64,000 bases of DNA from Verrucomicrobiota bacterium (lineage in GTDB: Bacteria; Verrucomicrobiota; Verrucomicrobiia; Opitutales; Seribacteraceae): contig JAQBYT010000016.1 of assembly GCA_027622665.1 (NCBI GenBank), forward strand, positions 1-64,000, written 5' to 3'. Below the pieces are notes generated by a model. That model was not told the origin of the DNA. It did not search any database and saw only the letters and a program-made list of their open reading frames with translations. The position numbers and the translations under genes were made by a program. Shown here in pieces: positions 38,009 through 55,338 of this stretch; positions within the stretch are counted from its first letter, which is position 1, and each line of letters starts with the position of its first letter.

Positions 38009-38449
38009 ATGGAAAACATTGGCGTAAAGGCGATTGCATCCGACATGAACCTTTCCTCCTCCCTTCTCTACAAGTGGTGTCAACCCAACAACGAAGAAGA
38101 TGAAAACGGAACCACCAATCCACTCGATCGTGTTGCCAAAATCTTCGAAGCCACGGGCGATGAACACCTTTTAGCTTGGATTTGCCAACAAGCAGACGGT
38201 TTTTTCTCGCCAAATCCTAAGGTAGGCGATGCCGCCGAGAACCTTTTTGCCAACACGCATCGGCTAGTGACCGAGTTTTCCGATCTTCTTCGTGAAGTCT
38301 CCCAGAGTTATGACAAAGATGGCGATATCTGCAAAGAGGATTCGCGGCGCATACGTCGTGAATGGGAAGAACTCAAAGGTGCGGGCGAATCTTTTGTCAA
38401 GGCGTGCGAGAAAGGTTTTTTTAAGATCGAAGAAAAAAGAGTGCTGTAA
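38009..38449 (+). CDS. Phage CII-like / HTH regulatory protein
   Basis: N-terminal HTH-like KAIASDMNLSSSLLYKWC, NPLDR, helical C-terminus with DGDI...D...IR.EWEELK; no phage neighbours. Confidence 0.55.
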   Translation: MENIGVKAIASDMNLSSSLLYKWCQPNNEEDENGTTNPLDRVAKIFEATGDEHLLAWICQQADGFFSPNPKVGDAAENLFANTHRLVTEFSDLLREVSQSYDKDGDICKEDSRRIRREWEELKGAGESFVKACEKGFFKIEEKRVL

Positions 38450-38743: not shown

Positions 38744-39196
38744 ATGTTACGAGGCATCTCACCACTTCTTAGTCCCGACCTACTCGAAACCATGTATCGC
38801 ATGGGACATCACGACGAAATCATTTTCGGTGATGCACATTTCCCAGGTGAAAGCTGCAACACGAAAATCATTAGAGCCGATGGGTTGCAAATTGACGATC
38901 TTCTCGAAGCCGTACTCCCGCTCTTCGTACTCGATCACGTCGTCGACAATCCCGTCATGATGATGGAACCTCTACCTGAAGATAAAGCCGACGCTAAAAT
39001 TTCAGCCGACTATAAAAAGGTGCACGATGGTTACCACGAAATCGTACAGAAGCATTATCCCGACACCGCTCCCATCGCACAAGTAGGGAAATGGGATTTT
39101 TACGAGCAAACCAAAAAAGCTTTCGCCGTCGTCATGACCGGCGACACACGCATTTACGCGAACCTCATTTTGGCGAAGGGCGTTACTACTTGGTAA
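38744..39196 (+). CDS. fucU: RbsD/FucU family sugar mutarotase (L-fucose mutarotase-like)
   Basis: MLRGISPLLSPDLL..MGH.DEI..GDAHFP, FYE..K.AFAVV.TG....YAN.IL.KGV. Confidence 0.88.
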   Translation: MLRGISPLLSPDLLETMYRMGHHDEIIFGDAHFPGESCNTKIIRADGLQIDDLLEAVLPLFVLDHVVDNPVMMMEPLPEDKADAKISADYKKVHDGYHEIVQKHYPDTAPIAQVGKWDFYEQTKKAFAVVMTGDTRIYANLILAKGVTTW

Positions 39197-39748
39197 ATGA
39201 AGTTTAAAGAGAAACACTTATTACTAAGTATATTTCTACTCTTTTGGTCTTTTGCTAGTTGCTTTGAACAGACAGCCGATATCTCTATCCCTAAAGGTTA
39301 TGACTCCAATCAAATATCCTTTAAATACCCGAAGAACTGGGAAATTACCCAAGATTACTATACCCCTGCGGTTCATAATCTTTTCGTAGAAACTGCTGGC
39401 GACGCATTGGTTATCTTACAATCATATCAGTCAGACCTAGCTGAAGATCTGGAATCTTTCTCAAAAAGTTTTTCAGAAAGTTCACGGACAGATACTCCGG
39501 TTGGCGAAGCTTCATTGGGTCATGAATTTGAAAATATCCCAAAGGAAGGGGGATATGAATGGATACGGGAGCAATTCGAGATTTCCTTACTTGGCGTATC
39601 CGTTCCTCATAGGAGAATTTACGGAACCAAGAAAATTGCCGATCGACAAATTTTCCTCATTTTTCAAGTTGCAACTGAGGATTACTCAAAAGCAGAGCCT
39701 GGCTTTCGTTTAATTAGGGATACCCTAAGAGAATCCAAGACGAATTAG
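39197..39748 (+). CDS. Hypothetical exported protein/lipoprotein (PsbP-like fold possible)
   Basis: Signal with FASC, ISFKYPKNW motif; AT-richer than neighbours. Confidence 0.55.
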   Translation: MKFKEKHLLLSIFLLFWSFASCFEQTADISIPKGYDSNQISFKYPKNWEITQDYYTPAVHNLFVETAGDALVILQSYQSDLAEDLESFSKSFSESSRTDTPVGEASLGHEFENIPKEGGYEWIREQFEISLLGVSVPHRRIYGTKKIADRQIFLIFQVATEDYSKAEPGFRLIRDTLRESKTN

Positions 39749-39751
39749 CGT

Positions 39752-40567
39752 CTATCCGCGGGATTTTCCTCCGGAAATATTGACCGTGGTTCCGTGCAGG
39801 TAGGAAGCACGATCGGAGGCAAGAAAAACAACTAAATCCGAAACCTCAGAAAGTTTTCCGCTTCGACCTAAGGGTATGGAAGATCCATCCTTGGAACGCA
39901 ATTCCTCCACCGAGATTCCACGTGTGTATGCAAGAGATTCCTCATAGGTATCACTTCTCATGCTCGTGGCCTCCATGATTCCCGGGGCTACTCCCACGAC
40001 TCGAATACCCTTGTTCCCTAGCTCCTTGGCCCACGAACGGGTAAGGTTTTGGTTGGCCGCCTTGGTCGCAGCATAAACGCTTTGGCCTTCACTTCCCTCC
40101 ATGCCGGATTCGGAAGACATGTTGATTAGCACTCCGCCTTTTCCATCAGCCAACATAGCTCGAGCAGCTGCTTGGGCACAGAGAAACTGCCCCTTTACGT
40201 TGACGGCGAAAACCTTGTCCCAGATTTCCTCGGTCAGTTCCTCCTTGCCGGTGGGGTCAACGAGGAGACGGGGAACGTTAATGCCGGCATTGTTTACGAG
40301 GACGTCGAGACGCCCGAAACGCTCGACTGCGGTGGCCACCATATTCTCTACGTCAGCCTTGGAAGTAACGTCGCAGCGAACGAAAACAGCTTCACCGGAG
40401 CCAAGGGAAGAAATTTCCTCGATTGCCTGAGCTCCTTGTTCCTCGGCGAAGTCAGCCAGAATAACGTTGGCCCCGACTTCGGCGAAGCCCTTGGCTACTG
40501 CAAGACCGATTCCGCAAGCGCCACCCGTGATTGCTACGTTTTTTTCAGCTAGGTTTGTCCAGTTCAT
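39752..40567 (-). CDS. SDR oxidoreductase, sorbitol-6-phosphate 2-dehydrogenase-like
   Basis: TGGACGIG, NNAGINVPRLLVDP, SSESG.EGSEGQS.YAATK, SWAKELG, YEE.LAYTRG as in Firmicute-type SrlD/GutD. Confidence 0.8.
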   Translation of the reverse strand: MNWTNLAEKNVAITGGACGIGLAVAKGFAEVGANVILADFAEEQGAQAIEEISSLGSGEAVFVRCDVTSKADVENMVATAVERFGRLDVLVNNAGINVPRLLVDPTGKEELTEEIWDKVFAVNVKGQFLCAQAAARAMLADGKGGVLINMSSESGMEGSEGQSVYAATKAANQNLTRSWAKELGNKGIRVVGVAPGIMEATSMRSDTYEESLAYTRGISVEELRSKDGSSIPLGRSGKLSEVSDLVVFLASDRASYLHGTTVNISGGKSRG

Positions 40568-40602
40568 GCTACGAAGAGAGAAGTTGTACAAGGATGGTAG
40601 GT

Positions 40603-42411
40603 TTAAGAAAGGTCAAGCGGGTAAGGTTTATCGTAGCCTGTGTAGAGAGCTTGCTCGACCTCACGCGACCAAACCTCGCCGTTAGTTCTGAGAACTTGGG
40701 CGGCTAGTTCGAGTGCGGTTCGCACAGGTTTTTCGGCATTCTCTGCAGCGGCATCAAAAGCCGCAGCGGAAACCTCAACGTAGGGAATATCGGGCAGCTC
40801 GGTGAAGGCAAAAAATGAGCCGAATGGTTGCTCGCTCTCTACTTTTTCCATCATTACGGGAACGTGACGAAGACCGCACACACCCTTGACCATCCAGTCG
40901 AAGTCCACGGGTTTCTGAGCCTGCTGAACCATATCGTCGGAATGGGGCTCCGAAGTATTGGTCATGTGCCAAGGAACGTTGGAACCGCAAATTTGATGAC
41001 GGGAAACATAATGAGCGTGCCGAGAGCCGATGGGGACGACCAGATCGCCATCTATAAAATTGACCGCTGCCGATCGCGCGAGACGCCCTTCGACTTTGCG
41101 GTAAAGGGCGGCGGCCTCTTCGCCGGTTGAAGCGATGAACACGTCGGTGTATGTGGAGGCTTCGGTCAATGAACGTAAGTTTCGATCGGATAAATCGTCT
41201 CCCGGGACATGGGCCTCCGTACCTCCCGGTAGGGCTTTCAGATAAGCGTCTACACGTTCTGGTTGCCCATCGAAGCCAAGAAGAGCGACGCGAGGTTCCT
41301 TGTCGAGACCTCGATGGCGACGAGGGTCGTTAGGACCGAGGTTGTGATGCATCGCCCCTATTTGGGCAGTGACCTCCTCGGCGATGGAAGCAAAACCGGG
41401 AGCATGCGCAACGCTCATAGGCAGAAGGAGGTCTGGGTCGGAAGCTCCTGCATAACTGTTGAGATTGCCCCCATCGGCAATGATTTCACAAGCTTGATCG
41501 TAGGTTGCCTGGGAAGCGTAATTCGTCCAGATCACCTCGGATTTACCAAATTCGGTGAGCTTGGAAATGATTTCCGGGTCGCTCCGGTCAATCAAGACGA
41601 CGCGACTACCTCGACGACGGAGGTCACGAATGAGGGCGTACTCCTCCATATCGGCAAGCTTTCCGGGAGAACCTGTAATATAAACGACGGATGGAAGTTC
41701 GTCATCGGGAACGGCAGCCACGATGGTGAGGTTTATCATCGCCATGCGGGCAGTACCCGACAGATAGGCAACTGTGGCTCGGGGGGGCACTCCATAGCGA
41801 AACTCACCGTCCGAACCGATTGTGAACACATGCTTGTTGGTACCGTAGTTGCAAGCGAATGGCTCGGCATGAGCAAGTGAAACAAGGCTTATGTCCGGAT
41901 GATGCCCAACCTTGTTGAAGAGATTCCCAAAGCCTTGTTGCTTCAAAAAGGCGGGAGCGGAACCCGGCACGGCGTTGAAAGCACGTAGGCCGCCGAGATG
42001 ACGGTAGGAGTAACCAAGTGCGGCGAGAACACCATCGGAGGCCGGAGCAAATGTTGAAGGGTCGATCGGTTCGCTCGAATGGCCGGGCGTGACGACAACG
42101 AGATCCCCGGGAACAAAACCTGAATCCTCGGGAGCTTGCAGGACAAGCTGAAGGGTCTCATGTCCAAGAGCTATTTGATTCACACCGTGCGGCACCCGGG
42201 CATGAGCGTCGAACTGGCGGATGGCCTTGGCGTCGGAAGCGCAACGACAATTACCAAAACCGGCGAGGACAAAACCGTTGCCGTCGAAAGCGGAAGCGGG
42301 AAGCTCATCGGAAAGAAGTCGTATCTCGTTGGGGCCTGTAAGAAAAATACCCTGATGTTCTAGTCGGGCGTTTTCAAGTAGATCGGCGGCTCGTTCTTGT
42401 CTGGATGGCAT
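40603..42411 (-). CDS. Divergent, extended MDR-family protein resembling L-sorbose-1-phosphate reductase (SorE)
   Basis: C.SD.K, H.RVP, LGHE, GYSY..GG, AEP.AC, NLN..AG motifs; 602 aa. Confidence 0.6.
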   Translation of the reverse strand: MPSRQERAADLLENARLEHQGIFLTGPNEIRLLSDELPASAFDGNGFVLAGFGNCRCASDAKAIRQFDAHARVPHGVNQIALGHETLQLVLQAPEDSGFVPGDLVVVTPGHSSEPIDPSTFAPASDGVLAALGYSYRHLGGLRAFNAVPGSAPAFLKQQGFGNLFNKVGHHPDISLVSLAHAEPFACNYGTNKHVFTIGSDGEFRYGVPPRATVAYLSGTARMAMINLTIVAAVPDDELPSVVYITGSPGKLADMEEYALIRDLRRRGSRVVLIDRSDPEIISKLTEFGKSEVIWTNYASQATYDQACEIIADGGNLNSYAGASDPDLLLPMSVAHAPGFASIAEEVTAQIGAMHHNLGPNDPRRHRGLDKEPRVALLGFDGQPERVDAYLKALPGGTEAHVPGDDLSDRNLRSLTEASTYTDVFIASTGEEAAALYRKVEGRLARSAAVNFIDGDLVVPIGSRHAHYVSRHQICGSNVPWHMTNTSEPHSDDMVQQAQKPVDFDWMVKGVCGLRHVPVMMEKVESEQPFGSFFAFTELPDIPYVEVSAAAFDAAAENAEKPVRTALELAAQVLRTNGEVWSREVEQALYTGYDKPYPLDLS

Positions 42412-42430
42412 TTTTATAAAAAGTTAAAAT

Positions 42431-42709
42431 TCAAACCTGAGGAGGAGCATCGGAATAGAACAAGTCATCCAGACTATCCCACGCACCCGGAGCTCCGGGA
42501 AGAGATAATCGCCGGGTAGTCATTACATTCCCCATGTCGCGAAGGTCATCGCACCCGATTCCCTTGATATTATCACCAAGGGTTCGAGCATGAATAATGT
42601 ACTTGGCGGTCATCTCGAGAAGATCCGTGCACATCTGAGCCCACTTTATATCCCATGGAGTAAGAAATACGTAACCATGATTTTCCATCAGAAAGGAATA
42701 TGACGAATC
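42431..42709 (-). pseudogene. C-terminal remnant of a class II aldolase/adducin-family gene
   Basis: SFLMENHG followed by LE.TAK....AR.LG; in-frame TGA only 7 codons upstream of the ATG, so N-terminal HxH metal motif is missing. Confidence 0.6.
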
Positions 42710-42721
42710 TCACCGGAATGG

Positions 42722-45178
42722 CTACACCCCTTCCCGGTTGCGACGCACCAGTTCCCCGTTGGTCGGGTTGGTGGTGAGTTTGTGACCATCCAGAGGGACA
42801 ATGCGTTCATGGATCGCATCAAGAATCCAGTTTGGTTGAGGGAAGAAATCTTCCTCCACCTCAGCTCCGGGAGTAATCCAGTTTCGGGACCCGACGACCA
42901 CGGGCGGAGCGTCCAAGTAATCGAATGCGAGCTGGCTCAAGTTGTTAGCAATGTCCTGCATGACTGATCCTCGCTCACAAGCGTCGGAAGATAAAACGAC
43001 CCTGCCCGTCCGCTTAACCGATTCCACCAATGGTTCGTAGTCGAGTGGATTGATGGAGCGACAATCAAAGACATCGCAACTCATGCCATAACGTTCCTGT
43101 AATTGGTCGGCGGCTTCGAGTGCTCGGTAGAGGGTGGCGCCAACGGTAATCATCGTAAGATCGGTGCCCGAACGACGCTTGGCGGGAGGCCCAATGGGTA
43201 TCTCGTAGTAATCAGCGGGCACCTCGGGTTCGAAAAGTTCGCCAATGTCGTACAGCCGCTGACTCTCGAAGAAAATAACCGGATCGCTTCCGGCCAAGGC
43301 TGTATTCAAAAGCCCCTTGGCGTCATAAGGAGTGGAAGGGAAAACAACCTTCAGACCTGGAATATGACTTACGATGGCACACCAGTCCTGCGAATGCTGG
43401 GCACCATATTTGGAACCAACCGAAACCCGCAAAACCACGGGCATCTCGAGAATCCCCGCACTCATGCTCTGCCATTTGGCAAGCTGGTTAAAAATCTCGT
43501 CGCCCGCTCGGCCAATGAAATCGCAATACATCAACTCGATCAAGGCTCGGCCACCTTCCAGGGCGTAACCGACTGCAGTTCCCACGATCGCGGCTTCCGA
43601 AATAGGAGAGTTGAAAAGGCGGTGATAGGGCAAGGACTCGGTAAGACCGCGGTAACAAGCAAAGGCGCCACCCCAGTCCCGATTCTCTTCGCCATAGGCA
43701 ATCAGAGTGGGATCATTTTCAAACCGATGAAGCACGGCCTCAAAAATGGCGTCGCGATATTGAAAGACCTTGTTTTTCGAGACAGGTTTACCGTCAACGA
43801 CTCCCGCCCGCGACTTTTTGGCGAGGGCTTGGACGCGCGGGTTTTCGTCATGGGCAAGCAGTAGCTCAGGCTTTCGCGATTCATCATAGCTCTCGCAGCG
43901 ACGATTGGAAAACATGAGCTCTCCGATTTTCTCTGATGGAATACGCGGAGACACCTCCAGATCCGTGGCAAGTCGGCAGACTTTAGCCATGGCCGTTCTC
44001 GTTTTCTCAATCAAGGCATCACGGGCCGCATCATCAAGTACGCCGACCCTTTTCAATTCGGCGGAAAAACTATCCAAAGGATCGACGGATTGCCACGCCT
44101 CGATCTCCTCCTTCATCCGGTAAGAGGATGCATCCGAGGGAGAGTGCCCGGAAAATCGATAGGTAATTGTCTCAAGGAGTACCGGACCGTCTCCCTTCTC
44201 CAACACCTCTCGCTTGCGCTTGATTGCATCGACAACCGCAAGCGGATTGTAGCCATCCACGCGCTCGGAGTGCATGGCATCCGGGTTCACACCTGCGCCC
44301 ACTCGAGAAAGCATGTCGAATGCCATGGTCTCGCCCGCAGTCTGGCCACCCATGCCATAAAAATTGTTCATGAAGTTGAAGATGATTGGCAATCCTCCGC
44401 GCAAGGATTCATCCCAAAGCTCATGAAACTGCCTCATGCCGGCAAAATTCATAGCTTCCCAAGTTGGTCCGCAACCCATGGAGGCATCACCGATATTGGC
44501 AATAACGAGACCATTCTTCCGGTTGACTTTCTTGAATAAGGCGGAACCAGTCGCTATATCGGCCGAACCGCCAACGATAGCATTGTTCGGAAAAACCCCA
44601 AAAGGAGTGAAGAAGGCATGCATGGAACCACCAAGGCCTCGATTGAACCCGGAAGCCCGAGCAAAGATTTCCGCCAAGGCTCCGTAGAGAAGAAAATCCC
44701 GGGCCAAATCCTTTACGCTCCCTCCTGAGGTTTCCTTTTCTACGACCCTTAGGCAGTCTCCACCGAGAAAGTCTTCCATCACGACCTGTAATTGAGCATC
44801 GTCGATTTTGCGAATAGCTGATGCTCCCTTGGCGAGAATCTCCCCATGCGAGCGGTGCGAGCCGAAGACATGGTCGTCCGGTCCCAGCAGAAAAGCCTGA
44901 CCGACGGCTGCGGCTTCTTGCCCGATGGATAAGTGAGCGGGGCCCTTGTGATCGTATTCGATTCCCTGATAGATTCCCTGCGTCTTTATCTCCTGCAGCA
45001 TGTTCTCAAACTCTCGAATGAGAAACATATCCTCATAAATACCAACGAGAGCTTCGGGCCCGTAGCTTTCCAGCTCATCCTCAATCGTTCCGGAATATTG
45101 GTTAAGAGGAATATCAGGGCAAGTCAGTTTCCCTGTTTTGCGTTCCTTTTGCGGTTCGATGATTTGCGACTTAGGCAT
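42722..45178 (-). CDS. TPP-dependent dehydrogenase E1, fused alpha+beta (acetoin/2-oxoacid dehydrogenase family)
   Basis: [16 protein letters not shown]...EAMN...[15 protein letters not shown]...YR; beta half [33 protein letters not shown]. Confidence 0.92.
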
Positions 45179-45237
45179 AATTCAAATGGTTGCGGTAAAA
45201 TAAAGGTAAGATGGAACAAAGAGAGGGGTACGAGGCA

Positions 45238-46584
45238 TCAGCGGACTGCCATGAACACGTCCTTGATTATTTCGGAGGCGGTCGGGTGCGGGAAAACGAT
45301 CTCTTCGATTTCTTTTTCGCGAAGCTCCGTTTCGAGCATTACGGCAGCGCCAAAAATCATTTCGGAACAAGCACCTCCAATCATATGAACACCTAGAAGG
45401 CGGCGCGTACCTTTCTCCACCACGACCTTGCACAAACCGGATTCGTCGGGATGCTCCGCCAAGTAACGGGCGTTGATGCCCATCGGGATTTTTCCCGTAG
45501 TCACTTTAAGTCCGCGTTCTTCCGCCTGCTCCTTGGTCAGTCCGACCACGGCGACTTCAGGATTGGTATAGATTACAGCCGGGATGGCGTCGTACCTCAT
45601 GCGATCTTCTCGACCCGTAAGGTTGTGGACGACCACCTCCGCCATACGACTCGCGGCATGGGCCAACCAAGCTCGTCCCGTGACGTCGCCTGCCGCCCAA
45701 ATACCCGGAACGTTCGTGGCGCCGCGATCATTTACGCGAATACCACCGCGCTCGTCGACGTCGACTCGCAAATCCTCAAGACCGAGTCCGGATACGTTGG
45801 GCTTACGCCCTGTGGCAACCAGAACAACGTCCCCGGGGACGGACTGAGTTTCTCCGTCGAGCGTAAACTTGACCTCCTTGTCCCCGATCTCATCCACTTT
45901 CGCACCCAGTCGAAAAGTAATGTTTTTCTTTTCCAGTTCCTTACGGAGGACGGAAGCCACTTCGGGATCCACTCCGGGACAAATCTCGGGAAGAGCTTCT
46001 ATAACGGTCACGGGTACACCGACCGAGCCGAACACACATGCAAATTCACAGCCAATCACGCCACCGCCAACAATCACCAACCGCTCGGGCAATTCAGGCA
46101 ATTCTAGAATGCCCGAGGAATCGACCACATGATCTGCATCAATGCCGGGAATAGGAGGTTTGGCAGGAGAAGACCCTGTACAGATCAAGACATTGTCGGC
46201 CTCGTGAGTTTCTCCATCCACCGTAACCGCAGGTCCGGCGGACAGGGTGGCTCGTCCGAAAACAACTTCCACCTTGTGCTTCTTCATAAGACCCGCAATG
46301 CCATCACGCATCCGATCCATTACCCGATTCTTATGGGCATGGGCCTTGCCCAAGTTGAAACGAACGCCATCGGCTTCCACGCCGAAGATTTCCCCATGCA
46401 AGGTATGGTGGTAGGTTTTCGCGGCCTGCAACAGGGTCTTGGATGGCACGCAACCTTCGTTCAGACAAACTCCACCGAGCTTCTTTCCTTCCACCAAGAG
46501 GACTTTCAGTCCATTCCCGGCGGCCTTTTTTGCGGCAACGTAACCGGCAGGGCCGGCGCCAATGATAGCCAAATCGTATTTCAC
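45238..46584 (-). CDS. lpdA: Dihydrolipoyl dehydrogenase (E3)
   Basis: GAGPAGY, GGVCLNEGCVPSK, GGGVIG.E, HPTASE. Confidence 0.93.
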   Translation of the reverse strand: MKYDLAIIGAGPAGYVAAKKAAGNGLKVLLVEGKKLGGVCLNEGCVPSKTLLQAAKTYHHTLHGEIFGVEADGVRFNLGKAHAHKNRVMDRMRDGIAGLMKKHKVEVVFGRATLSAGPAVTVDGETHEADNVLICTGSSPAKPPIPGIDADHVVDSSGILELPELPERLVIVGGGVIGCEFACVFGSVGVPVTVIEALPEICPGVDPEVASVLRKELEKKNITFRLGAKVDEIGDKEVKFTLDGETQSVPGDVVLVATGRKPNVSGLGLEDLRVDVDERGGIRVNDRGATNVPGIWAAGDVTGRAWLAHAASRMAEVVVHNLTGREDRMRYDAIPAVIYTNPEVAVVGLTKEQAEERGLKVTTGKIPMGINARYLAEHPDESGLCKVVVEKGTRRLLGVHMIGGACSEMIFGAAVMLETELREKEIEEIVFPHPTASEIIKDVFMAVR

Positions 46585-47930
46585 TTAGATGATTCTCCTA
46601 TTTTGTTTGCGGCGGGATCGCCGGAATAATTTTCCAAAGTCTCGACCAAGTCCTTCAGGAAGCGAGCTGCAGGAGCACCGTCTATGGCTTGGTGATCCAT
46701 GGTCAAGCTGAGGGCAATGCTGTCGACAAAATTCACTTCTCCAGTTTCTCCGCGGACAGGACGAATAGAAATGCCGCCCACGCCGAGGATCGCCACCTCG
46801 GGAATATTCAGAACGGGCGTAAAGTGCTCCACTCCCAACATCCCGAGATTGGTCAAGGTGAAGGTGCCGCCGGTCAATTGATCTGGCTGGATGGTGCCTT
46901 CCCGGCATTCCTCGGCCAAGCCACGAATACCAGCGGACAAATTGTCAAGAGACAGGCAACATGCCTTGCTCAAGACAGGAACCATCAGGCCGCGATCGGT
47001 GTCTACGGCGGTTCCTAAACTCACTTTCTCGAAACGAGCTATGCGATCACCCAGGAAATGGGCGTTAAGATCGGGATGTCGCAAAAGAGTGTGGATCAAC
47101 GCGTGAGAAATCACGTCATTGAGAGAAACCTTCGGTTCTCCCGATTCCTTGCGAGCCTTGCGAAACGCTTGGGCTGCGGTAACGTCAAAGGCTGCATGCA
47201 AAGTGAGCTGGGCAGTATTCCCCAGAGACTGCATCATACGGTCAGCAATGACCTTACGAATACCCTTCACGGGGACGACCTCGGCGCCATCGATCGATCC
47301 CGGTTCTCGCATGTCGGAAGCCAAGGCCATGCCGGACAAACCTCCTCCATGGACGGGTGGTTCCAGTCCACCTTCGCGGGCAAGCGCCGAGGCGGATGCG
47401 CTCAGTCGCGGCGTGCCCTCCAATGCTCCTTGCACGTCCCGCTCGATAACGCGTCCGCCGGGTCCTGTTCCAAGAAGAGAATCCGGATCAATACCCGATC
47501 GCATGGCAAGTTGTCGCGCCCGTGGGCTGACACCTGCAACCGACCCCTCAGCCGCCGACACGGGAGAAGCAACGGTCCCGACCGAAGCGGCGGGAACCGA
47601 GGTTTCCGAAATCGCAGGACTGGAGGTAGAATCTACCGAAGGTCCGGATGAGGCAGCTTCCGTTACAGGCCTAAAACCGGACGCATCCTCACCCTCATCT
47701 CCGATCACCGTGACGTTTGCGAGAACGGGAACGTCGTCGTCGGCTTCCCAAAACAAATCAAGAACCGTACCGGCAACAGGAGATTCCAGATCAAAACTCG
47801 CCTTGTCCGTCTCAATGACGGCGAGCACCGAGCCTTCCTCCACTTGATCACCCGGAGCGACCTTCCATTCGGTCAAGATACAACTTTCCACCGACTGACC
47901 TTGTCGAGGCATAATAACAGGAGTAGCCAT
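46581..47930 (-). CDS. Dihydrolipoamide acyltransferase (E2)
   Basis: Lipoyl domain ETDKAS, E3-binding SPRAR..GTGPGGRV, GGTFTLTNLG, DHQAIDG. Confidence 0.92.
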   Translation of the reverse strand: MATPVIMPRQGQSVESCILTEWKVAPGDQVEEGSVLAVIETDKASFDLESPVAGTVLDLFWEADDDVPVLANVTVIGDEGEDASGFRPVTEAASSGPSVDSTSSPAISETSVPAASVGTVASPVSAAEGSVAGVSPRARQLAMRSGIDPDSLLGTGPGGRVIERDVQGALEGTPRLSASASALAREGGLEPPVHGGGLSGMALASDMREPGSIDGAEVVPVKGIRKVIADRMMQSLGNTAQLTLHAAFDVTAAQAFRKARKESGEPKVSLNDVISHALIHTLLRHPDLNAHFLGDRIARFEKVSLGTAVDTDRGLMVPVLSKACCLSLDNLSAGIRGLAEECREGTIQPDQLTGGTFTLTNLGMLGVEHFTPVLNIPEVAILGVGGISIRPVRGETGEVNFVDSIALSLTMDHQAIDGAPAARFLKDLVETLENYSGDPAANKIGESSK

Positions 47931-47954
47931 ACGTTCGTTCCTTTTCGCTTTGTT

Positions 47955-48710
47955 TTAGGCCAAGCGAACCTTCAAACCCCGCTTGCGCAGAGCTCGGGCA
48001 GTCTTGGCCGGAAAATTTTTGTCACTAATCAAAATGTCAACGCTCTCCAGGTCGCTCACTCGAGCAAAGGAAATCTTTCCCGCCTTCCGAGCATCGGCCA
48101 AAAGAATCACTTGCCGGGCATGCTCTTGAACGAGGGACTTGGTAAAAGCTTCGTTGGGATCCGTCGTGGTGAGACCATCATCGATGGAAAGCCCCATCGT
48201 ACCCATGAAGGCCTTATCCAAACGCACCTGACCGAGGAGGACTCGGGTAAGCGGTCCCACCATGGTTTGACTCAACCGACGAAGTTCGCCGCCGGTAAGA
48301 ATCACCCGAGGACCGGATTCCGCCAACTCCGCCGCGGCTCGAAGAGAATTTGTAACCACCGTAAGATCGGTCCGTCCCGCAAGTAAACGGGCCAGTTCCA
48401 GAACGGTGCTGCCACCATCGAGGTAAATCGAATCACCTGTACCTATAAGCTTGAAGGCTTCCTCGGCGATTAGGCGCTTTTCCTTTAGAGCGAGGTTCGC
48501 CTTGTCGTCGAACACCTCTTCTTCCAATCGACTCTCCATGCTGACCGCTCCGCCATGCACCCGTCGGATACGCCCCTCTTCCTCCAAGGCTTCCAAATCA
48601 CGACGCACGGTTGCAACCGAAACCTTAAGGTCGGATTTCAAATCCTCGACCCGAGCAACGCCGGCCTTGCGAATGAGGTTTCTCATACGCTCACGCCTTT
48701 CGGGTGCCAA
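47955..48710 (-). CDS. DeoR/GlpR family transcriptional repressor
   Basis: LAPERR (TTG at 48710 likely start), VSVATVRRDL, RVHGGA, LDGGST, VVTNS. Confidence 0.93.
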   Translation of the reverse strand: MAPERRERMRNLIRKAGVARVEDLKSDLKVSVATVRRDLEALEEEGRIRRVHGGAVSMESRLEEEVFDDKANLALKEKRLIAEEAFKLIGTGDSIYLDGGSTVLELARLLAGRTDLTVVTNSLRAAAELAESGPRVILTGGELRRLSQTMVGPLTRVLLGQVRLDKAFMGTMGLSIDDGLTTTDPNEAFTKSLVQEHARQVILLADARKAGKISFARVSDLESVDILISDKNFPAKTARALRKRGLKVRLA

Positions 48711-48737
48711 GTCTGCTCTAACTTCAAGAATCACAAA

Positions 48738-48777
48738 TGATTGGTTTTGATCGTTTTTGATCGTTTTTGAAAGAAAA
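48738..48777. promoter_or_regulatory. Four phased 10-bp direct repeats; probable DeoR operator
   Basis: TGATTGGTTT TGATCGTTTT TGATCGTTTT TGAAAGAAAA immediately upstream of the DeoR gene; resembles the (TGAWWGWTTT)4 FruR-type operator. Confidence 0.7.
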
Positions 48778-48824
48778 GCAATCAAGAAACCGTAGTTTTT
48801 CGTTACGGAAAAAACGAAAGCCAG

Positions 48825-50033
48825 CTAAATTCGAGAAGAAAGAACCAGTTCCAAAAGTTCGGCCGCGACCTCTTCGGGAGCATCTCTCCAAAGATCGGAC
48901 AGGACGGCTTCGGGGTCATCTTGGCCTGTTTCATCACACAGGCATTGCAAAGCGATGGCTACCCCTCGAGCCAGTCGATTGGGTTTCACCCCCGCCTCCG
49001 AAGCAAGCAACATGGAGCCGACCAGACGATCCTCCCAACCAAGTTTGCGAGCCGGATCTCGAGTTACTCGGGCGACCGGATCACGAAGGAAGGGGTTGAC
49101 CATGCGAGTAACCGCATCCTTGGCATAGGCGCGAAAGCCGTCCTCGGTAAAAAGCTCGTCATCCATCTCGCCATACTTGTGCCGCAAACCGATTCCAGAT
49201 TCCTCAAGAAAAGCTTCTTGCGCAAAGGCCATGAGGTCTTCGCGCTTGCCTGCCTCGTGCATAAAACCAAGCCCTTGTTCCCGAGCCAAATAACCAAGCA
49301 AGGCATGGTTGGCGTTGTGACCGAGGAATTTAGTGATGGCAAAAGGATCGAGGTCGGGTTTTTCAATGAAGGCGGAAAGTCCGCGCTCAAAGTTCGGCAA
49401 GGTGACTTGGTCGACGAGGATTTCGCTGAAAGACTCGACGAGGAAGGCACGAGGGAAACCGGGAACAATCGGGGCGAGACCTTCGTCGGTAATGCGCACG
49501 GGGTCCGCCACCACGGAACACATCTTGGCAATAACAGTCTCCGAAAACTGGACGCTTTCTCCGAAACCTCCCGGAGCATGACCGAGACAGGCGTCTCGTA
49601 GACGTAAAGCAGCCCGAGAATCGTTTTCAGCGGCGTAGGTGACGCAGGTCGGCAAGGCAGGATCCGCCATCTTCATAGAAAAACCTTCCGCGAGAAGGGA
49701 AGCGACAGAGGCTTCGCCCACGTCGTACAACGTGAAACTCGGGAGCGCGGTCGCCAATTCGCTCGCCTCGGAAATGGCCCGCACGAGCGCTTCACGATCC
49801 TCATCCACCAATGGGTTGAGGATTTCCACACCCTCCACGCATATCGTCTCCACCGAAGAGCTCCCCGCAATATTGCAAAAGTAGGTTCCTTCGGCAGCCC
49901 GCAAGGCAGCCACGGATTCGGCATCGATTTCCGAAACGACCAGTCGGGAAAAGTTCCCCGAGCGAAAAGCTTCGGGAAGAAAGAGTCCTCCTTGAATGGC
50001 TCCGAAACCGAAGCCGACGAAAGTGCGGCTCAA
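48825..50033 (-). CDS. Mannitol-1-phosphate dehydrogenase-like (polyol-specific long-chain dehydrogenase)
   Basis: GFGFGAI.GG, AEN, K.L.HN..HA catalytic motif, NPFL.D.V.RV.RDP.RKLG..DRL. Confidence 0.78.
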   Translation of the reverse strand: MSRTFVGFGFGAIQGGLFLPEAFRSGNFSRLVVSEIDAESVAALRAAEGTYFCNIAGSSSVETICVEGVEILNPLVDEDREALVRAISEASELATALPSFTLYDVGEASVASLLAEGFSMKMADPALPTCVTYAAENDSRAALRLRDACLGHAPGGFGESVQFSETVIAKMCSVVADPVRITDEGLAPIVPGFPRAFLVESFSEILVDQVTLPNFERGLSAFIEKPDLDPFAITKFLGHNANHALLGYLAREQGLGFMHEAGKREDLMAFAQEAFLEESGIGLRHKYGEMDDELFTEDGFRAYAKDAVTRMVNPFLRDPVARVTRDPARKLGWEDRLVGSMLLASEAGVKPNRLARGVAIALQCLCDETGQDDPEAVLSDLWRDAPEEVAAELLELVLSSRI

Positions 50034-50045
50034 GACAAGACTCCC

Positions 50046-51365
50046 CTACTCCGCCGAAACGGCTTTACGAGCATGGGCAAGAACTTCCTCGGGGCCTTGA
50101 TCCACGGATAATCCTTCCCCTAGACGGTCCTCACCAAAAGGTTGAAAAGCATGACCGAACTCGGCGAAAAAATCGTTCTTGGCGAAAACGTCGGCGAAGG
50201 AGTTTTTGGCCCATTCGCTGAGGTAGCCCATGCCCATCATACCTTGCAATACGGTGTGAGCATAGAGGATGCGTCCACCTTTGAGAAAAACCGAGCGAAG
50301 GGGATCGAGGGCGGCGGAATCGAAGTCATCGACAAACTTTTGCCCGGGGCCATTCATTTCCGTTCCTCCGATAAGGGGCAACCCGCGTCTCTCGACAAGA
50401 GCGACCACTTCCTGAAGGTTGCGAAGTTTTTCATCGGGAGAACCGGGCGTGTAGTTCCGGTCGGGAATAACGTTGAAGGCAGCCACTCCCGACTCCATCC
50501 CGATGTCGATCAGCTCCTCGATGGCTTGCTCCCCGGAGGAACAACCATCCAGCCAAGCAAGAGTGGGGATTGCTCCACAAAGCAGGGAAAAACGATTCAT
50601 GTCCGACATCTTCGGGAAAGATCCCGTATCGGGCTGAACGTATCCTACGCCACCTCGCTTCATGGTCTTTCCCCGCAGCAAATCGGTCAGACCGCGACCC
50701 TCGGGAAGGTCGACAATGTCCTCGGTTGCTACGCCCAGCTTATCCCCCCAGTATCGGGCCAAGGCTTCGGCATCGGGAAATTGAGACGCGGCCTTCCGAG
50801 CGTAGGCCACGCAAAGGTGACGCTCGGTGGCATTGCCGGCAGGCGTAAGGGGCAAAACGTCGGCATCGTAGTCGAGGATAACCGGAGCGAGGTGCGCATT
50901 CACGCGATCAACGAGACCACGATTGCGATCGGCGGACGTGTTTCTCATCCCGTCGAGAAAGGTTTGAGCCTCGGCTGGAATGTCGGTCGTGGTGAACCCG
51001 GTTCCCATGTGGTAGCTAATGCCGGGTTCGCCGGGAGAATTGATTTCCCGATCGGCGAACTCAGGCACGAACACTCGAGATTCCACACCCACGGCGCCCT
51101 TCAAGTTGAGCAAGCGACCCGCAGCCAGAAATTCGTCAAGCCCATCCAAGCAATCGAATTCCACGATCCCGGAGGTTTCCAATCCGTGTCGCTTGGCTTC
51201 GAGGGCAAAGTGACTGGGAGAGTATCCCCGATAGTTGTAAGAAAAGAAAGTATGGGCGTGCAGGTTTAAGATTGGCTTCGGTTCGGGAAAGGCTTCTCCG
51301 GACAAACCTTCGAGGGTTTGGCGTCGAATGGAGGAATCGAAATCGTCGATTGGGTTTTCGGACAT
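50046..51365 (-). CDS. PHP-domain (metal-dependent phosphoesterase-like) protein
   Basis: NLHAHTFFS...SPS, G.E.RV, R..S..RN, GGTEMN. Confidence 0.65.
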   Translation of the reverse strand: MSENPIDDFDSSIRRQTLEGLSGEAFPEPKPILNLHAHTFFSYNYRGYSPSHFALEAKRHGLETSGIVEFDCLDGLDEFLAAGRLLNLKGAVGVESRVFVPEFADREINSPGEPGISYHMGTGFTTTDIPAEAQTFLDGMRNTSADRNRGLVDRVNAHLAPVILDYDADVLPLTPAGNATERHLCVAYARKAASQFPDAEALARYWGDKLGVATEDIVDLPEGRGLTDLLRGKTMKRGGVGYVQPDTGSFPKMSDMNRFSLLCGAIPTLAWLDGCSSGEQAIEELIDIGMESGVAAFNVIPDRNYTPGSPDEKLRNLQEVVALVERRGLPLIGGTEMNGPGQKFVDDFDSAALDPLRSVFLKGGRILYAHTVLQGMMGMGYLSEWAKNSFADVFAKNDFFAEFGHAFQPFGEDRLGEGLSVDQGPEEVLAHARKAVSAE

Positions 51366-51413
51366 ATAGAAAAGTGAGCTGGAAGGATTGAGGAAAAAGA
51401 AAGTGAACGAGGC

Positions 51414-52454
51414 TCAGGTCTCGTCCACACCGACACCGAATTGATCGGCGAGGGCCAAGCATTCGTCAAGACTCTTGACGCCATCGGTACAAGTCGGGTC
51501 GGACAAGGAAGCGGTCGCGGCGCAGGTACCGGCAAGGAGGGAACGATCCAGTTCCCAATCTTCGTGAATGCCGTATAGCATTCCCGCACAAAAGGCGTCG
51601 CCCGCGCCGGCTGCTCCAGCAACGTAACCTTTGGGCAAGGACAAGGAACCTTGCCATGCTGATTCACCGGAAACCGAACAAGCGTATGCGCCTTCGGGAA
51701 AGTGAATGGCCACCAGTTCGCGAGCTCCCAATTCCATAAGGCGTTCGGCTGTCTCCCTCACCGAGGATTCGTTCAGCTTGTCTCCGTCGCGAACGGAAAT
51801 GCCGGTAACCTTGCTCGCCTCGATTTCGTTGAGTATGCAATAGTCGACCTGCTTGAGGGCAGGGCTAACGATTCTCGAGAATCGATCGCTGTCCTCGCTT
51901 ACCACGTCCAAACTAGTCTTTAAACCGGCTTCTCGGGCCATTGCCAATATGCGGGCGCCACGAGTCCCATACTCGGAATCCTCCGCGTCGATGGCATCCA
52001 GCAAAAGCAAATAACCAAGGTGAAAGATCCGGGCGTTGGAAGCGGAAAAGTCGAGGTCGCTTCCAGCCCATTCGGCATTGGCTCCGCGATTATGGAAAAA
52101 CGTACGGCGTCCGCCGTTCTTCTCGGTCATCACGTCAGTGTAGGAAGTGGAGGCATTTTGGTTGACCGTGATGAATCGAGGATCGACACCGTGGCGACGG
52201 CAATCCTCGAGGATAAGCTCCCCAAAGGCGTCCTTACCCACGAAACCGGCGCCTTCGAGCGGGAATGGGGCTCCCATCTTGGCCAGGTCCAACAAGACAT
52301 TGTAGGGCGACCCCCCCGAGCCTTGCGACTGGTCGTAAATGTTGGCCAGTTGCTCGTGCTTGGGATAGACGTCGATAATCTTTACTTGGTCTATGATCCA
52401 ATTACCGCCGGCGAGAATGCCTGAGCGGGTTTCCGAAGAGGATTTCGGCTCCAT
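51414..52454 (-). CDS. PfkB family carbohydrate kinase
   Basis: GG.PYN, G.VGKD.FG, RTFF..GAN, NEIEA, GAGDAF.AG; start ATG 52454. Confidence 0.92.
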   Translation of the reverse strand: MEPKSSSETRSGILAGGNWIIDQVKIIDVYPKHEQLANIYDQSQGSGGSPYNVLLDLAKMGAPFPLEGAGFVGKDAFGELILEDCRRHGVDPRFITVNQNASTSYTDVMTEKNGGRRTFFHNRGANAEWAGSDLDFSASNARIFHLGYLLLLDAIDAEDSEYGTRGARILAMAREAGLKTSLDVVSEDSDRFSRIVSPALKQVDYCILNEIEASKVTGISVRDGDKLNESSVRETAERLMELGARELVAIHFPEGAYACSVSGESAWQGSLSLPKGYVAGAAGAGDAFCAGMLYGIHEDWELDRSLLAGTCAATASLSDPTCTDGVKSLDECLALADQFGVGVDET

Positions 52455-52577
52455 GTAGCGTGCGGGGGTTGTTTTAGGATTTGCAGGAAAAAACGATTTT
52501 CGCTTTACCTTTAAGGCGAAAAACGATTCTTCACCTGCATCCCAATTTCCTAAAACTGGCAAGAAAGAAAAGAATAT

Positions 52578-53849
52578 ATGAGCACCGAACTACCTCGTTC
52601 CATTGATGGCCTGAATACGGTCACGGAAAACGTACGCTCTCATGCGGAAGCAGCTCTGGAAGCCGGCAACGGTCTCCTGCGCCTCGCTCCATGCTGGGTG
52701 CCCCGCTCCTTTTTGCAACCGGGCAAAAGACTGAAGCTCGACCCTAATGACCTCTACGCATTCGGCCTAAATCGAGGCGGCATCGACGAGCGCTGGTTCG
52801 GTTCCACGACCGAGGCGGCCAACGAAGGGCGCGTTCACGACGAAGGCTTCAGCTACGTCGTGCACGACGGCCAACGCTTTACGTTGCGAGACACGGTTGC
52901 CGAGCTGGGAGCCGAGCTTATCGGCGAATCCATCTGGAGCAAATACGGACGCTGGCCCGTGTACTCCAAGTTCTTCGACAACATGGGGCCAATTCCTCAT
53001 CACATGCACCAAAACGCGGAGCAAGCCGCGCTCGTTGGCCAGGAAGGAAAACCCGAGTCCTATTATTTTCCGCCCCAGCACAACAACGTCGGCAATAATT
53101 TCCCCTACACGTTTTTCGGCCTTAACCCCGATACCACCAAGGATCAGGTCCGCCGATGCATCGCCGACTGGAACAAGGGCGACAACGGGATTCTCGACCT
53201 CTCCGCCGCCCAACGCCTCAAACCCGGAACCGGCTGGCTCGTGCCTCCATCCATCCTCCATGCTCCCGGCTCGCTTTGCACTTACGAACCGCAATGGGGT
53301 TCCGACGTATTCGGCATGTACCAAAACCTCGTGGAAGGTCGCGAAGTACCTTGGAGTCTCTTGGTGAAAGACATGCCCGAGGACAAGCACCAGGACATCG
53401 ACTTCATCATCGACCAACTCGACTGGGAAGGAAACGTAGACCCCGATTTCCACAAAAACCATTTCCTTCAACCTATCCCCGTGGCCGACACTTCGGCCGA
53501 GGGATACGTCGATCGCTGGATCGTGTACGGCCGTATCGAGGGCAAGCAGGACTTCAGCGCCAAGGAACTTACGGTAGACCCGGGTTCGTCCTGTACCATC
53601 AAGGACAACGGAGCCTACAGCATGATCGTGGTGCAGGGCGGCGGCAAGATGAACGAACTGGTGCTCGATTGCCCGAAGATGATCGGATTTCGGGAGCTCA
53701 CTCGCGACGAGGTTTTCTGTTCGGCGAAAGCCGCCGCGGAAGGCGTTCGCTTCGAGAATTCCTCCCCCACCGAACCTCTCGTAATCCTTCGCTACTTCGG
53801 ACCCGAAGCCAATCCCGACGCTCCCGAAATAGGCGACGCCGCGAAGTAA
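52578..53849 (+). CDS. Cupin-fold sugar-phosphate isomerase-like protein (class I mannose-6-phosphate isomerase-like)
   Basis: ERW..ST, KFFD..PIPHHMHQ, KPESYY, LHA.GS...YEPQ..SD. Confidence 0.65.
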   Translation: MSTELPRSIDGLNTVTENVRSHAEAALEAGNGLLRLAPCWVPRSFLQPGKRLKLDPNDLYAFGLNRGGIDERWFGSTTEAANEGRVHDEGFSYVVHDGQRFTLRDTVAELGAELIGESIWSKYGRWPVYSKFFDNMGPIPHHMHQNAEQAALVGQEGKPESYYFPPQHNNVGNNFPYTFFGLNPDTTKDQVRRCIADWNKGDNGILDLSAAQRLKPGTGWLVPPSILHAPGSLCTYEPQWGSDVFGMYQNLVEGREVPWSLLVKDMPEDKHQDIDFIIDQLDWEGNVDPDFHKNHFLQPIPVADTSAEGYVDRWIVYGRIEGKQDFSAKELTVDPGSSCTIKDNGAYSMIVVQGGGKMNELVLDCPKMIGFRELTRDEVFCSAKAAAEGVRFENSSPTEPLVILRYFGPEANPDAPEIGDAAK

Positions 53850-53865: not shown

Positions 53866-55338
53866 CTAGTCTTCCTCAGCTATCCGCGCCTCAATGGCGG
53901 CGATCACTCCGTCGAGAGCCTTGATGCGGGCGTATCGCTTGCAGTTGCCCTCGATCACGGTCCAAGGAGCGTAGGAGGTATTGGTGCGTAGAAACATTTC
54001 TTCGGTTGCCTCCTCGTAGAGATCCCACTTTTCCCGGTTGCGCCAGTCCTCTTCGTTGAGTTTCCACTGCTTTGCGGAATCTTTCTCTCGGGCCTTGAAC
54101 CGGTTCATCTGCTCGTCCTTGTCGATCTGAAGCCAGAACTTGATCACGACGGCACCGAAATGCCAAAAATTTTCCTCCATCTCGTTTATCTCGCCATAGG
54201 CCCGATTCCAATCGGCCTCGGAGCAAAACCCTTCCACGCGCTCTACGAGCACGCGACCATACCATGAACGATCGAATATGGTAAGGTGACCCGCCTTGGG
54301 AAACTCCGTCCAGAATCGCCACAAGTAGTGGTGGACTTTCTCTACGTCGTTGGGAGCCGCAATCGGTATCACTTCGTAACCGCGGGGGTCCATCTCCTCG
54401 GTCAAGCGTCGGATATTGCCCCCCTTGCCTCCGGCGTCCCAACCCTCGTAGACGATTACCACGGGAATACGGCGATGGTAGATCTCATCGTGCAACTCGC
54501 CAATCCGCTTCTGGCGCTTCTCCAGAAGCTTGCGGTATTCATCCCTGTCCAGGCTCAGGGATAGATCCACCCTCTTCAAGCTCGGGGCAGTCGGGAACAC
54601 GGGCAAATCCTTTTTCGGGGGAGGACCCTGCTTCGGCACATCCGTCGCCAGAGCAGTCACCCGCTTTCCCAAGACCTTAACCAAACATCGAAGAATACTG
54701 GCGTTGGCGGAAGTCACGTGCTTGGCATCGATCACCTTCCAAGGAGAGGCCGGAAGATCGGTGGCCTCGATTAATCGCTTGGTCGCCTTTTTGTACTGAC
54801 CATACTTGCAATGACGCGCGAGAACTTCGTCGGACACCCGCCAAGCAGTGGCGGGATTCTTGCGAAGCTTGTTCAGACGCTCGGCTTGCTCTTCCTTAGA
54901 AATATCCAAGAAGAATTTGAAGATGACCGTCCCTCCGTCCTTAAGCTGATTCTCGAAGGCGACGACGTCGTCGAATGCCTTACTCAAGGAATCTTCATCC
55001 AATTCCTCCGCCACGTAATCGTCCAACAAGGTGCGGTACCAACTCCGATCGAATATGGCCATGCGTTCCGCCGAGGGCGTGCGCCTCCAGAACCGCCAGA
55101 GAAAGGGGCGCAACTGTTCGTCATGATTGGGGGAGGCGATGCATGAGACCTTGAAGCCCCGAGGATCCAGTGGCTGGATCACGCGGTTGATCATGGTGCC
55201 CTTGCCCGCGGCGCTCCAACCCTCGAAAACAATGAGCACGGGAATCCCCAGCTCACGACAACGGCGCTGGAGCAAAGCCAATTCCTGCTCCAGTTCCTCG
55301 ATTTCCCGCTTCAGTGCCTTTTTACCGTTCCCATCCAT
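53866..55338 (-). CDS. pap: Polyphosphate:AMP phosphotransferase (two-domain PPK2)
   Basis: Two PPK2 domains: EGWSAAGKG..DRSWY and EGWDAGGKGG..LWRFW..FDRSWYGR. Confidence 0.9.
   Translation of the reverse strand: MDGNGKKALKREIEELEQELALLQRRCRELGIPVLIVFEGWSAAGKGTMINRVIQPLDPRGFKVSCIASPNHDEQLRPFLWRFWRRTPSAERMAIFDRSWYRTLLDDYVAEELDEDSLSKAFDDVVAFENQLKDGGTVIFKFFLDISKEEQAERLNKLRKNPATAWRVSDEVLARHCKYGQYKKATKRLIEATDLPASPWKVIDAKHVTSANASILRCLVKVLGKRVTALATDVPKQGPPPKKDLPVFPTAPSLKRVDLSLSLDRDEYRKLLEKRQKRIGELHDEIYHRRIPVVIVYEGWDAGGKGGNIRRLTEEMDPRGYEVIPIAAPNDVEKVHHYLWRFWTEFPKAGHLTIFDRSWYGRVLVERVEGFCSEADWNRAYGEINEMEENFWHFGAVVIKFWLQIDKDEQMNRFKAREKDSAKQWKLNEEDWRNREKWDLYEEATEEMFLRTNTSYAPWTVIEGNCKRYARIKALDGVIAAIEARIAEED

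Follow-up and report, generated by a model that had tools for sequence, protein, structure and literature searches.

An operon in a 64,000-nucleotide window of Verrucomicrobiota DNA (the whole stretch analyzed: positions 1 to 64,000 of contig JAQBYT010000016.1, assembly GCA_027622665.1, family Seribacteraceae of the Opitutales) may encode a route that turns a 6-deoxy-ketohexose phosphate into acetyl-CoA and a tetrose-4-phosphate without an aldolase. This reading is given an even chance of being right. Read from the minus strand between positions 38,744 and 53,849, the genes follow the order PfkB-family kinase, PHP-fold protein, MtlD-like dehydrogenase, DeoR regulator, E2, E3, fused thiamine pyrophosphate (TPP)-dependent E1, aldolase remnant, SorE-like dehydrogenase and short-chain dehydrogenase/reductase (SDR). 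A fucU gene converges on the operon from the left and a gene for a 423-residue cupin diverges from it on the right. The E1, PHP and SorE-like core is one conserved module, and its E1/E2/E3 complex is a third complex beside the canonical pyruvate dehydrogenase (PDH) and 2-oxoglutarate dehydrogenase.

A TPP/lipoyl complex conserved with sugar genes

The window E1 scored well below the PDH cut-offs (190.6 against 393.85 for TIGR03182, and 228 against 454 for NF008854). The genome, which is 93.5% complete, carries AceE, AceF and Lpd on contig C44 and SucA on contig C64, all above their cut-offs. The island complex is therefore not the sole PDH of the genome, and the first of the conditions under which the sequence-only reading was to be overturned does not hold. 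PdhA was also above cut-off in all five relatives tested, three without AceE and two more. In the E2 translation the lipoyl-lysine and the catalytic DH motifs are visible. Across 34 members of the E1 family the TPP motif (G230-D231...N271-N272) is invariant, as are R500, R557 and K590, which could serve as phosphate binders. An active-site motif read SHRSHG in the window E1, THRGHG in an AcoA from an acoXABC context and SYRDHG in a PdhA, with one example of each; the histidine before the conserved arginine, in place of the PdhA tyrosine, is what we take to be the AcoA-type signature. One row, L029, held the wrong open reading frame (ORF) and was left out of this alignment.

Acetoin dehydrogenase (AcoABCL) shares with the window complex a TPP-dependent E1, a lipoyl E2, an E3 and the histidine of the H-R-x-H-G motif common to AcoA, and its ketol cleavage to acetyl-CoA is the chemistry proposed here. 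The two differ in that E1 alpha and beta are fused in the window in one 818-residue ORF but are separate subunits in Aco, with about 32% identity over the fused length. AcoB lacks the R500, R557 and K590 that are invariant in the window E1 family, and the window complex lies in a sugar operon under DeoR, without acoX or acoR. Another sugar-linked complex was seen at locus L113 (NZ_CP149760.1:60710-68448), where a split E1/E2/E3 with the AcoA-type histidine stands behind a GH43 glycosidase, a major facilitator superfamily (MFS) transporter and a sugar-binding regulator.

A species-level genome scan for E1 confirmed 585 of 600 scanned stretches, and about 2,300 are estimated in all. Neighboring genes were counted by ORF clustering in the best 80 stretches, many of which end at contig ends. 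These loci span Verrucomicrobiota, Bacteroidota, Bacillota, Spirochaetota, Chloroflexota, Armatimonadota and Planctomycetota, and contain genes for SorE-like proteins (32), PHP (23), SDR (38), MtlD (11), rhamnulokinase-like proteins (11), FucI (4) and FucU (14). In many taxa the module is flanked by genes for fucose and rhamnose isomerases, kinases and mutarotases, a likeness to the phosphorylated fucose and rhamnose pathways (fucIKAU, rhaABD, RhaEW). At three Bacteroidota loci E1 occurs with a D-lyxose/mannose isomerase and PfkB, at two of them also with MtlD and at one with a transaldolase.

Whole-genome profiling covered one sample of 171 Verrucomicrobiota genomes; kin among them are not independent, and the counts are read as patterns rather than as significance tests. 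The fused E1 was present in 51 genomes, 33 with an identity of at least 54% (including a partial one) and 18 in a sister group at 38-41%. PHP was found in 50 of the 51 E1-positive genomes and in none of the 120 E1-negative ones; for the SorE-like protein the counts were 47 and 3. Of the isomerases, RhaA was found in 47/51 against 47/120, FucI in 40/51 against 49/120, and either of them in 50/51 against 69/120. The module is absent from all 56 genomes of the sample that belong to the same order or class; in the window's own family E1 was present in 34 of 41 genomes (20 of 22 among those of high quality). The co-occurrence of E1 with sugar genes in other taxa, both at the loci and across the 171 genomes, bears out the claim of a dedicated, non-housekeeping complex tied to sugar-phosphate redox enzymes, and the association is conserved across phyla.

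Proposed route from 6-deoxyketose phosphates

In sorbose catabolism SorE reduces C2 of the ketose-1-phosphate and SorD or SrlD oxidizes the far end, and L-sorbose-1-phosphate becomes fructose-6-phosphate. Applied to a 6-deoxy-ketohexose-1-phosphate, the same end swap places the methyl group beside the ketone, and the resulting 1-deoxy-ketose-6-phosphate is an analogue of acetoin. The paired redox steps, which had been described as an epimerization, read better as such an end-for-end swap. In the proposed route a kinase (RhaB or FucK elsewhere, PfkB here) would supply the 6-deoxy-ketohexose-1-phosphate, and the PHP protein would epimerize it, for example L-fuculose-1-phosphate at C3 to 6-deoxy-L-sorbose-1-phosphate. 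A SorE-type enzyme would reduce C2 as in sorbose catabolism, and a SorD/SrlD-type (L-series) or MtlD-type (D-series) enzyme would oxidize the old C5. The product would be 1-deoxy-D-fructose-6-phosphate, a methyl ketone that could not be phosphorylated at C1. E1 would split this ketol in the way acetoin dehydrogenase splits acetoin, E2 would form acetyl-CoA, E3 would form NADH, and erythrose-4-phosphate would enter the pentose-phosphate pathway. Transketolase and transaldolase are encoded in the genome.

Bookkeeping with Fischer projections reproduced the sorbose control. By the same bookkeeping both 6-deoxy-L-sorbose-1-phosphate (with SorE and SrlD) and 6-deoxy-D-fructose-1-phosphate (with SorE and MtlD) lead to 1-deoxy-D-fructose-6-phosphate. 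Fuculose and rhamnulose used directly would give threose-4-phosphate, and one epimerization is therefore needed.

The dehydrogenases were compared with the sorbose enzymes. The SDR scored 345.7 against a cut-off of 304 for sorbitol-6-phosphate dehydrogenase (NF004817) and is 51% identical to the SDR of a Serratia sorbose operon. The SorE-like protein shares 24% identity with E. coli YggP, whose Rossmann part it matches in two places, and gave no direct BLAST match to annotated SorE; its 602 residues align with a 420-residue family form that is itself 55% identical to YggP and 49% to annotated SorE, and C57, H84 and E85 are invariant. The best equivalog score of the MtlD-like protein was 91.9 against 356, with the catalytic motif present. 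Across loci the far-end dehydrogenase comes from one or another of three distinct families of hexitol-phosphate dehydrogenases (NF009050, NF004817 and MtlD). The L-sorbose pathway (sorD, sorABFM, sorE) and E. coli cmtAB-yggP share with the window the SorD-type SDR and the redox logic of the end swap. The L-sorbose pathway has a phosphotransferase system (PTS), whereas the window has none; its reductase is a distant YggP relative with a duplicated Rossmann part, and the redox pair is coupled to E1/E2/E3 and PHP.

The structure model of the PHP protein (mean predicted local distance difference test score 93) matched PHP enzymes best among folds in the PDB (2yb1, 9etk and 3o0f; Foldseek E 1.3e-10 to 2yb1), and PF02811 was found in 12-20% of the members of its Atlas clusters. 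Relative to 3e0f the HxH motif, E95 and the final acid (E/D336) are retained, while the SDG aspartate, the DH histidine, the AH histidine and the final histidine are replaced; the assignment of these ligands to individual metals is our assumption. R182 and R303 are invariant. The protein lacks the full three-metal ligand set of PHP phosphoesterases of the RNase AM / CV1693 type, which fits the epimerase slot, and it is likely the epimerase of the module.

A fuller scheme that assigns every enzyme for 6-deoxyhexoses in several phyla is offered tentatively and is doubtful as a whole. In it a RhaE-like 4-epimerase would convert rhamnulose-1-phosphate to fuculose-1-phosphate ahead of the PHP 3-epimerase, and 1-deoxy-glucitol-6-phosphate would be the L-series intermediate. 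The RhaE-like protein, a candidate for this 4-epimerase, has a class II aldolase fold and is encoded apart from the island at C65:277403-278455 (L082:9403-10455). It was found in 47 of the 51 E1-positive genomes, with 2 weak matches in the 120 E1-negative ones. Its gene stands alone, often beside rhaA, and in two cases shares its stretch with a double-domain RhaD-like gene. A role as an adaptor for rhamnose only fits the phylum sample, in which three of the four E1-positive genomes without RhaA also lack the RhaE-like protein, but does not hold for the window's family: there, 22 of the 33 E1-positive relatives carry the protein and lack RhaA.

RhaE-like sequence was also met in SrlD-type SDRs: a full RhaE-like N-terminal domain in L029:14936-16924, and short N-terminal extensions resembling a remnant of it in L002:13753-14838, L027:14741-16042 and L061:7254-8462. 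These extensions are a possible second case of aldolase-domain decay. Genome G089 has a second copy of the module (L100:5517-12600) with rhaA, a window-type SDR (63%), PHP (40%) and both aldolase-fold genes, in which a conventional zinc dehydrogenase occupies the SorE position.

The first such decay is in the operon itself. The remnant spans 85 codons and shares 76% identity with the C-terminus of a 244-residue class II aldolase encoded at the same position in relatives, and it is cleanly deleted in seawater contigs from three of four runs. The gene is intact in 7 of 8 relatives with E1 and FucI, against 4 of 25 with E1 and no FucI. Genomes G128 (95% complete, with FucI and a RhaB-like kinase) and G199 (96%) have the whole module and gave no class II aldolase match. 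The fucose and rhamnose pathways cleave C3 + C3 by an aldolase, whereas the window's aldolase-fold gene is dispensable and a C2 + C4 cleavage is proposed.

Published relatives, counter-evidence and rival explanations

The cluster had been put forward as uncharacterized and its pathway as new, but it matches one printed in a study of Caldicellulosiruptor bescii regulons. There Athe_0695-0706 comprises fucA, rhaD1, a hypothetical gene, srlD, sorE, lipA, E2, E3, one E1 gene, DeoR and rhaA, and in the available part of that paper SorE and SrlD are given no role (PMC8579813). The gene order is the same as in the Bacillota loci of this survey, a likeness drawn from gene names and order. The Caldicellulosiruptor cluster retains aldolases and RhaA, whereas the window has PfkB, an MtlD-like enzyme, a SorD-type SDR and a decayed aldolase. 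In C. saccharolyticus Csac_0865-0876 is induced by rhamnose, and the role of the other genes is called unclear in the portion of the report available (PMC4187192). A third relative is the Rhizobium cluster pRL80079-pRL80088, whose fused E1 is 55% identical and is accompanied by a kinase, a sugar isomerase/epimerase and RbsD/FucU; a lone lipoyl domain and an alpha/beta hydrolase replace E2/E3, and there is no PHP, SorE or SrlD in the annotated stretch. Its orthologue of E1 is probably pRL80083, from the gene order anchored on pRL80079, 81 and 85, and its homoserine phenotype is known from the relevant passages of citing papers. No description of the proposed pathway, and none of 1-deoxy-fructose-6-phosphate, fucitol-1-phosphate or rhamnitol-1-phosphate as catabolic intermediates, was found in the literature searched, which covered few subscription papers. 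The module is real and widespread; what is in print is the gene cluster, not the pathway proposed here. It would combine two known kinds of system, an acetoin-type complex and sorbose-type redox enzymes, and this survey adds a conserved, predicted DeoR-type operator that also precedes a pyrophosphatase gene.

Several observations weigh against an aldolase-free route from 6-deoxyketose phosphates. Within the available account of the C. bescii cluster, fucA and rhaD1 lie inside it, and C. saccharolyticus on rhamnose forms 1,2-propanediol and acetate 1:1 though the matching cluster is induced (PMC4187192, as far as available), which leaves little flux there for the proposed route. The Rhizobium orthologue belongs to a cluster tied, in the citing passages, to homoserine catabolism, a phenotype outside the model. 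The nucleotide loop of the SorE-like protein reads SGTARM instead of GxGPMG. Class II aldolases often coexist with the module and even adjoin it (G107, G011), and mutual exclusion of the two was looked for in the 171 genomes and not found; Aldolase_II matched in 139 of the 171, a family that mixes AraD, MtnB, RhaD and FucA, and the types are not separable among the matches listed. The RhaE-like protein, with metal motifs that look intact and a distribution that tracks E1, may in fact be a genuine aldolase.

The entry sugar in this lineage adds to these points. The classical fucose/rhamnose aldolase set was not found in the genome: FucI gave no match, rhaA stands alone on contig C65, the rhamnulokinase-like rhaB (G000:C17:16953-18394) is frameshifted near its 5' end, as a pseudogene or through an assembly error, and the operon aldolase is the remnant. 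Of 41 genomes of the window's family, 1 gave a match to RhaA and 10 to FucI; a RhaB-like kinase was present in 3 of the 10 tested, and the alternative isomerase RhaI in none of five. With most family relatives lacking the known fucose and rhamnose entry enzymes, entry here would be through PfkB, which is the first gene of the operon in 6 of 14 family-like loci, most of the others being truncated. PfkB is possibly the lineage's own entry kinase, and its substrate may be a deoxy-polyol or a deoxy sugar of the D-series.

Among the rivals, an unlikely one that nonetheless fares best places the complex downstream of a normal aldolase, where lactaldehyde (or acetol) would be oxidized to lactyl-CoA or cleaved to acetyl-CoA. 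A three-subunit acetoin-dehydrogenase-like enzyme (Athe_0702-4) was suggested for lactaldehyde in C. bescii, without test, in the part of the paper at hand (PMC8579813). Aldolases in or beside several clusters and the RhaE-like protein in most E1-positive genomes agree with it, and lactaldehyde, a product common to fucose and rhamnose, would explain the dual linkage. This explanation gives no role, however, to the SorE-, SrlD/SorD- and MtlD-type enzymes that travel with E1, the module is intact without an aldolase match in G128 and G199, and C. saccharolyticus reduces lactaldehyde to propanediol in the 1:1 ratio noted above (PMC4187192, available portion).

Less likely again is a non-deoxy ketose or polyol entering via PfkB, with E1 cleaving xylulose-5-phosphate or fructose-6-phosphate to a glycolyl unit in the manner of an oxidative phosphoketolase. 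Glycolysis or the pentose-phosphate pathway already takes up ordinary ketose phosphates, for which no special complex is required, and RhaA or FucI is present in all but one of the E1-positive genomes of the phylum sample, with FucU retained beside the operon. Alphaproteobacterial orthologues, in contrast, occur with xylulokinase, a mannitol-dehydrogenase-family gene and a sugar ABC transporter (those of Agrobacterium and Pleomorphomonas, 54-56% identical, adjoin xylulokinase), and most family members keep the module without RhaA, FucI or RhaB. On the last ground a rare ketose or polyol taken in through PfkB, as first supposed, may still apply to this lineage; a substrate of the sorbose, tagatose or mannitol type lost ground to the 6-deoxyhexoses fucose and rhamnose, to which the context in other taxa points.

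It is improbable that E1 is a true dehydrogenase that decarboxylates a 2-oxo acid carrying a hydroxyl or phosphate group. E1 does belong to the 2-oxo-acid dehydrogenase superfamily, and passages of citing papers describe the pRL8 orthologue, placed at pRL80083, as needed for homoserine use, but that cluster itself is built from genes of the sugar ABC, kinase, isomerase and RbsD/FucU kinds, the best 80 loci show no recurrent dehydratase or sugar-acid gene, and the AcoA-type histidine stands where PdhA has tyrosine. A housekeeping PDH with chance sugar neighbors, for which the three relatives without AceE might speak, was rejected as scarcely credible on the AceE/AceF/Lpd genes elsewhere in the genome, the PdhA of all relatives tested, the E1 scores under the PDH cut-offs and the co-occurrence with PHP.

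Operon layout and regulation

All genes listed in the sequence-only reading were recovered in position and strand by the ORF map and by Pfam and NCBIfam scans, and the co-oriented operon with convergent FucU and divergent cupin is real. Intergenic gaps within the operon range from -4 to about 90 bp, and likely starts were corrected by comparison for pfkB (52454), deoR (48734) and the SDR (40567). As had been claimed, no sorbose PTS or other transporter gene was detected within 38744-53849. The PHP, SorE-like and cupin proteins (439, 602 and 423 residues) had no Pfam or NCBIfam match, and single-sequence PDB searches with them were uninformative. A generic promoter and terminator scan of the region was at chance level only. 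Contigs from four marine RNA runs span most of the region; contigs are by nature silent on transcription.

Features of the island, in window coordinates.
Feature	Position	Strand	Basis
PfkB-family sugar kinase, 346 aa from likely ATG	51414..52454	-	PF00294; GAGDAF motif; relatives begin at same Met
PHP-fold protein, 439 aa, reduced metal site, predicted sugar-phosphate epimerase	50046..51365	-	Fold; residue comparison
MtlD-like polyol-phosphate dehydrogenase	48825..50033	-	PF08125, below MtlD cut-offs; GxGxxG and KxxxxNxxH
Predicted DeoR operator, three CRATC units, 10-bp period	48739..48763	-	Repeat counts; conservation in family
DeoR-family regulator, 259 aa from GTG	47955..48734	-	PF08220 and PF00455; start from relatives
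E2 dihydrolipoamide acyltransferase, one lipoyl domain	46581..47930	-	PF00364, PF02817, PF00198
E3 dihydrolipoamide dehydrogenase	45238..46584	-	TIGR01350 497.5 against cut-off 408.8
Fused E1 alpha/beta, 818 aa, acetoin-dehydrogenase-like, predicted ketol-cleaving	42722..45178	-	E1_dh, Transket_pyr and Transketolase_C
Decayed 3' remnant of class II aldolase-fold gene, 85 codons	42431..42688	-	76% to C-terminus of intact gene in relatives
SorE/YggP-family zinc dehydrogenase, divergent, 602 aa, duplicated Rossmann segment	40603..42411	-	C57/H84/E85; 24% to YggP
Sorbitol-6-phosphate 2-dehydrogenase, SorD type (SDR)	39752..40567	-	NF004817; 51% to sor-operon SDR
183-aa ORF, absent from the sequence-only reading, probably a passenger	39197..39748	+	No family match; in 4 of 80 loci
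FucU/RbsD mutarotase, convergent	38744..39196	+	PF05025; NF011949 139.3 against cut-off 141
Phosphomannose-isomerase-like cupin, 423 aa, accessory	52578..53849	+	Fold match

The cupin folds as a type I phosphomannose isomerase (E 4e-8, at 9-14% identity; profile E 0.012). It had been counted as an isomerase of the island, and the gene is there, yet it is accessory: a relative 96% identical lacks it, and it is not tied to E1 across genomes (11/51 E1-positive against 14/120 E1-negative, p=0.10). A core role was rejected on these grounds. In two family loci a cupin paralogue of 28-29% identity precedes pfkB. The cupin family is very large and highly conserved and has no Pfam model (7999 of 7999 candidates scored, the best 120 at 74% or more), and its members often adjoin xylose-isomerase-like barrels. 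Adjoining the island, a phage CII/YmfL-like regulator gene at window 38009-38449 is syntenic in three family loci, and a PPK2 (polyphosphate:AMP phosphotransferase) gene at 53866-55338 lies upstream of pfkB on the same strand, as in seven family loci.

The three CRATC units lie directly 5' of the likely deoR start and are conserved in family relatives. The exact three-unit pattern occurs twice in the genome and not at all in five shuffles. Its second copy directly precedes the gene of a membrane ion-pumping (sodium/proton) pyrophosphatase (G000:C55:80143-82396; L159:10144-12397), a link also seen in G178 and in G192, which is another genus; in the other 8 of the 10 genomes searched no exact repeat precedes that gene. 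We infer that the repeat is the operator bound by DeoR. The spacing agrees with the direct repeats at 10-11 bp described for the DeoR-type rhamnose regulators, RhaR, in the available part of that work (PMC3870299). A pyrophosphatase co-regulated in this way would balance pyrophosphate in the proposed route. In G011, a genome at the Lentisphaerae/Kiritimatiellae level, the operon ends with a soluble pyrophosphatase. The only PfkA-like protein found has the D and K residues that we take to be a pyrophosphate-dependent signature. A one-mismatch repeat, exact in G178, precedes the gene of a protein of about 500 residues without a Pfam match (G000:C65:190196-191769; L166:3-1535), a possible third member of the regulon.

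Among the major constituents of algal and plant glycans are fucose and rhamnose. The phosphorylated routes known to us for these sugars all split C3 + C3 and have lactaldehyde to dispose of. If the proposed route is true, a complex of the 2-oxo-acid-dehydrogenase type would act on a sugar phosphate, a PHP domain would serve as an epimerase, and lactaldehyde would be avoided. The model specifies exact substrates and is thereby testable with four purified enzymes. The E1 family is large and, in the window's marine Opitutales family, nearly universal. A C2 + C4 cleavage would change the carbon and energy bookkeeping of fucose and rhamnose degraders, and the PHP and RhaE-like proteins, both from families so far without annotation, would gain a function.

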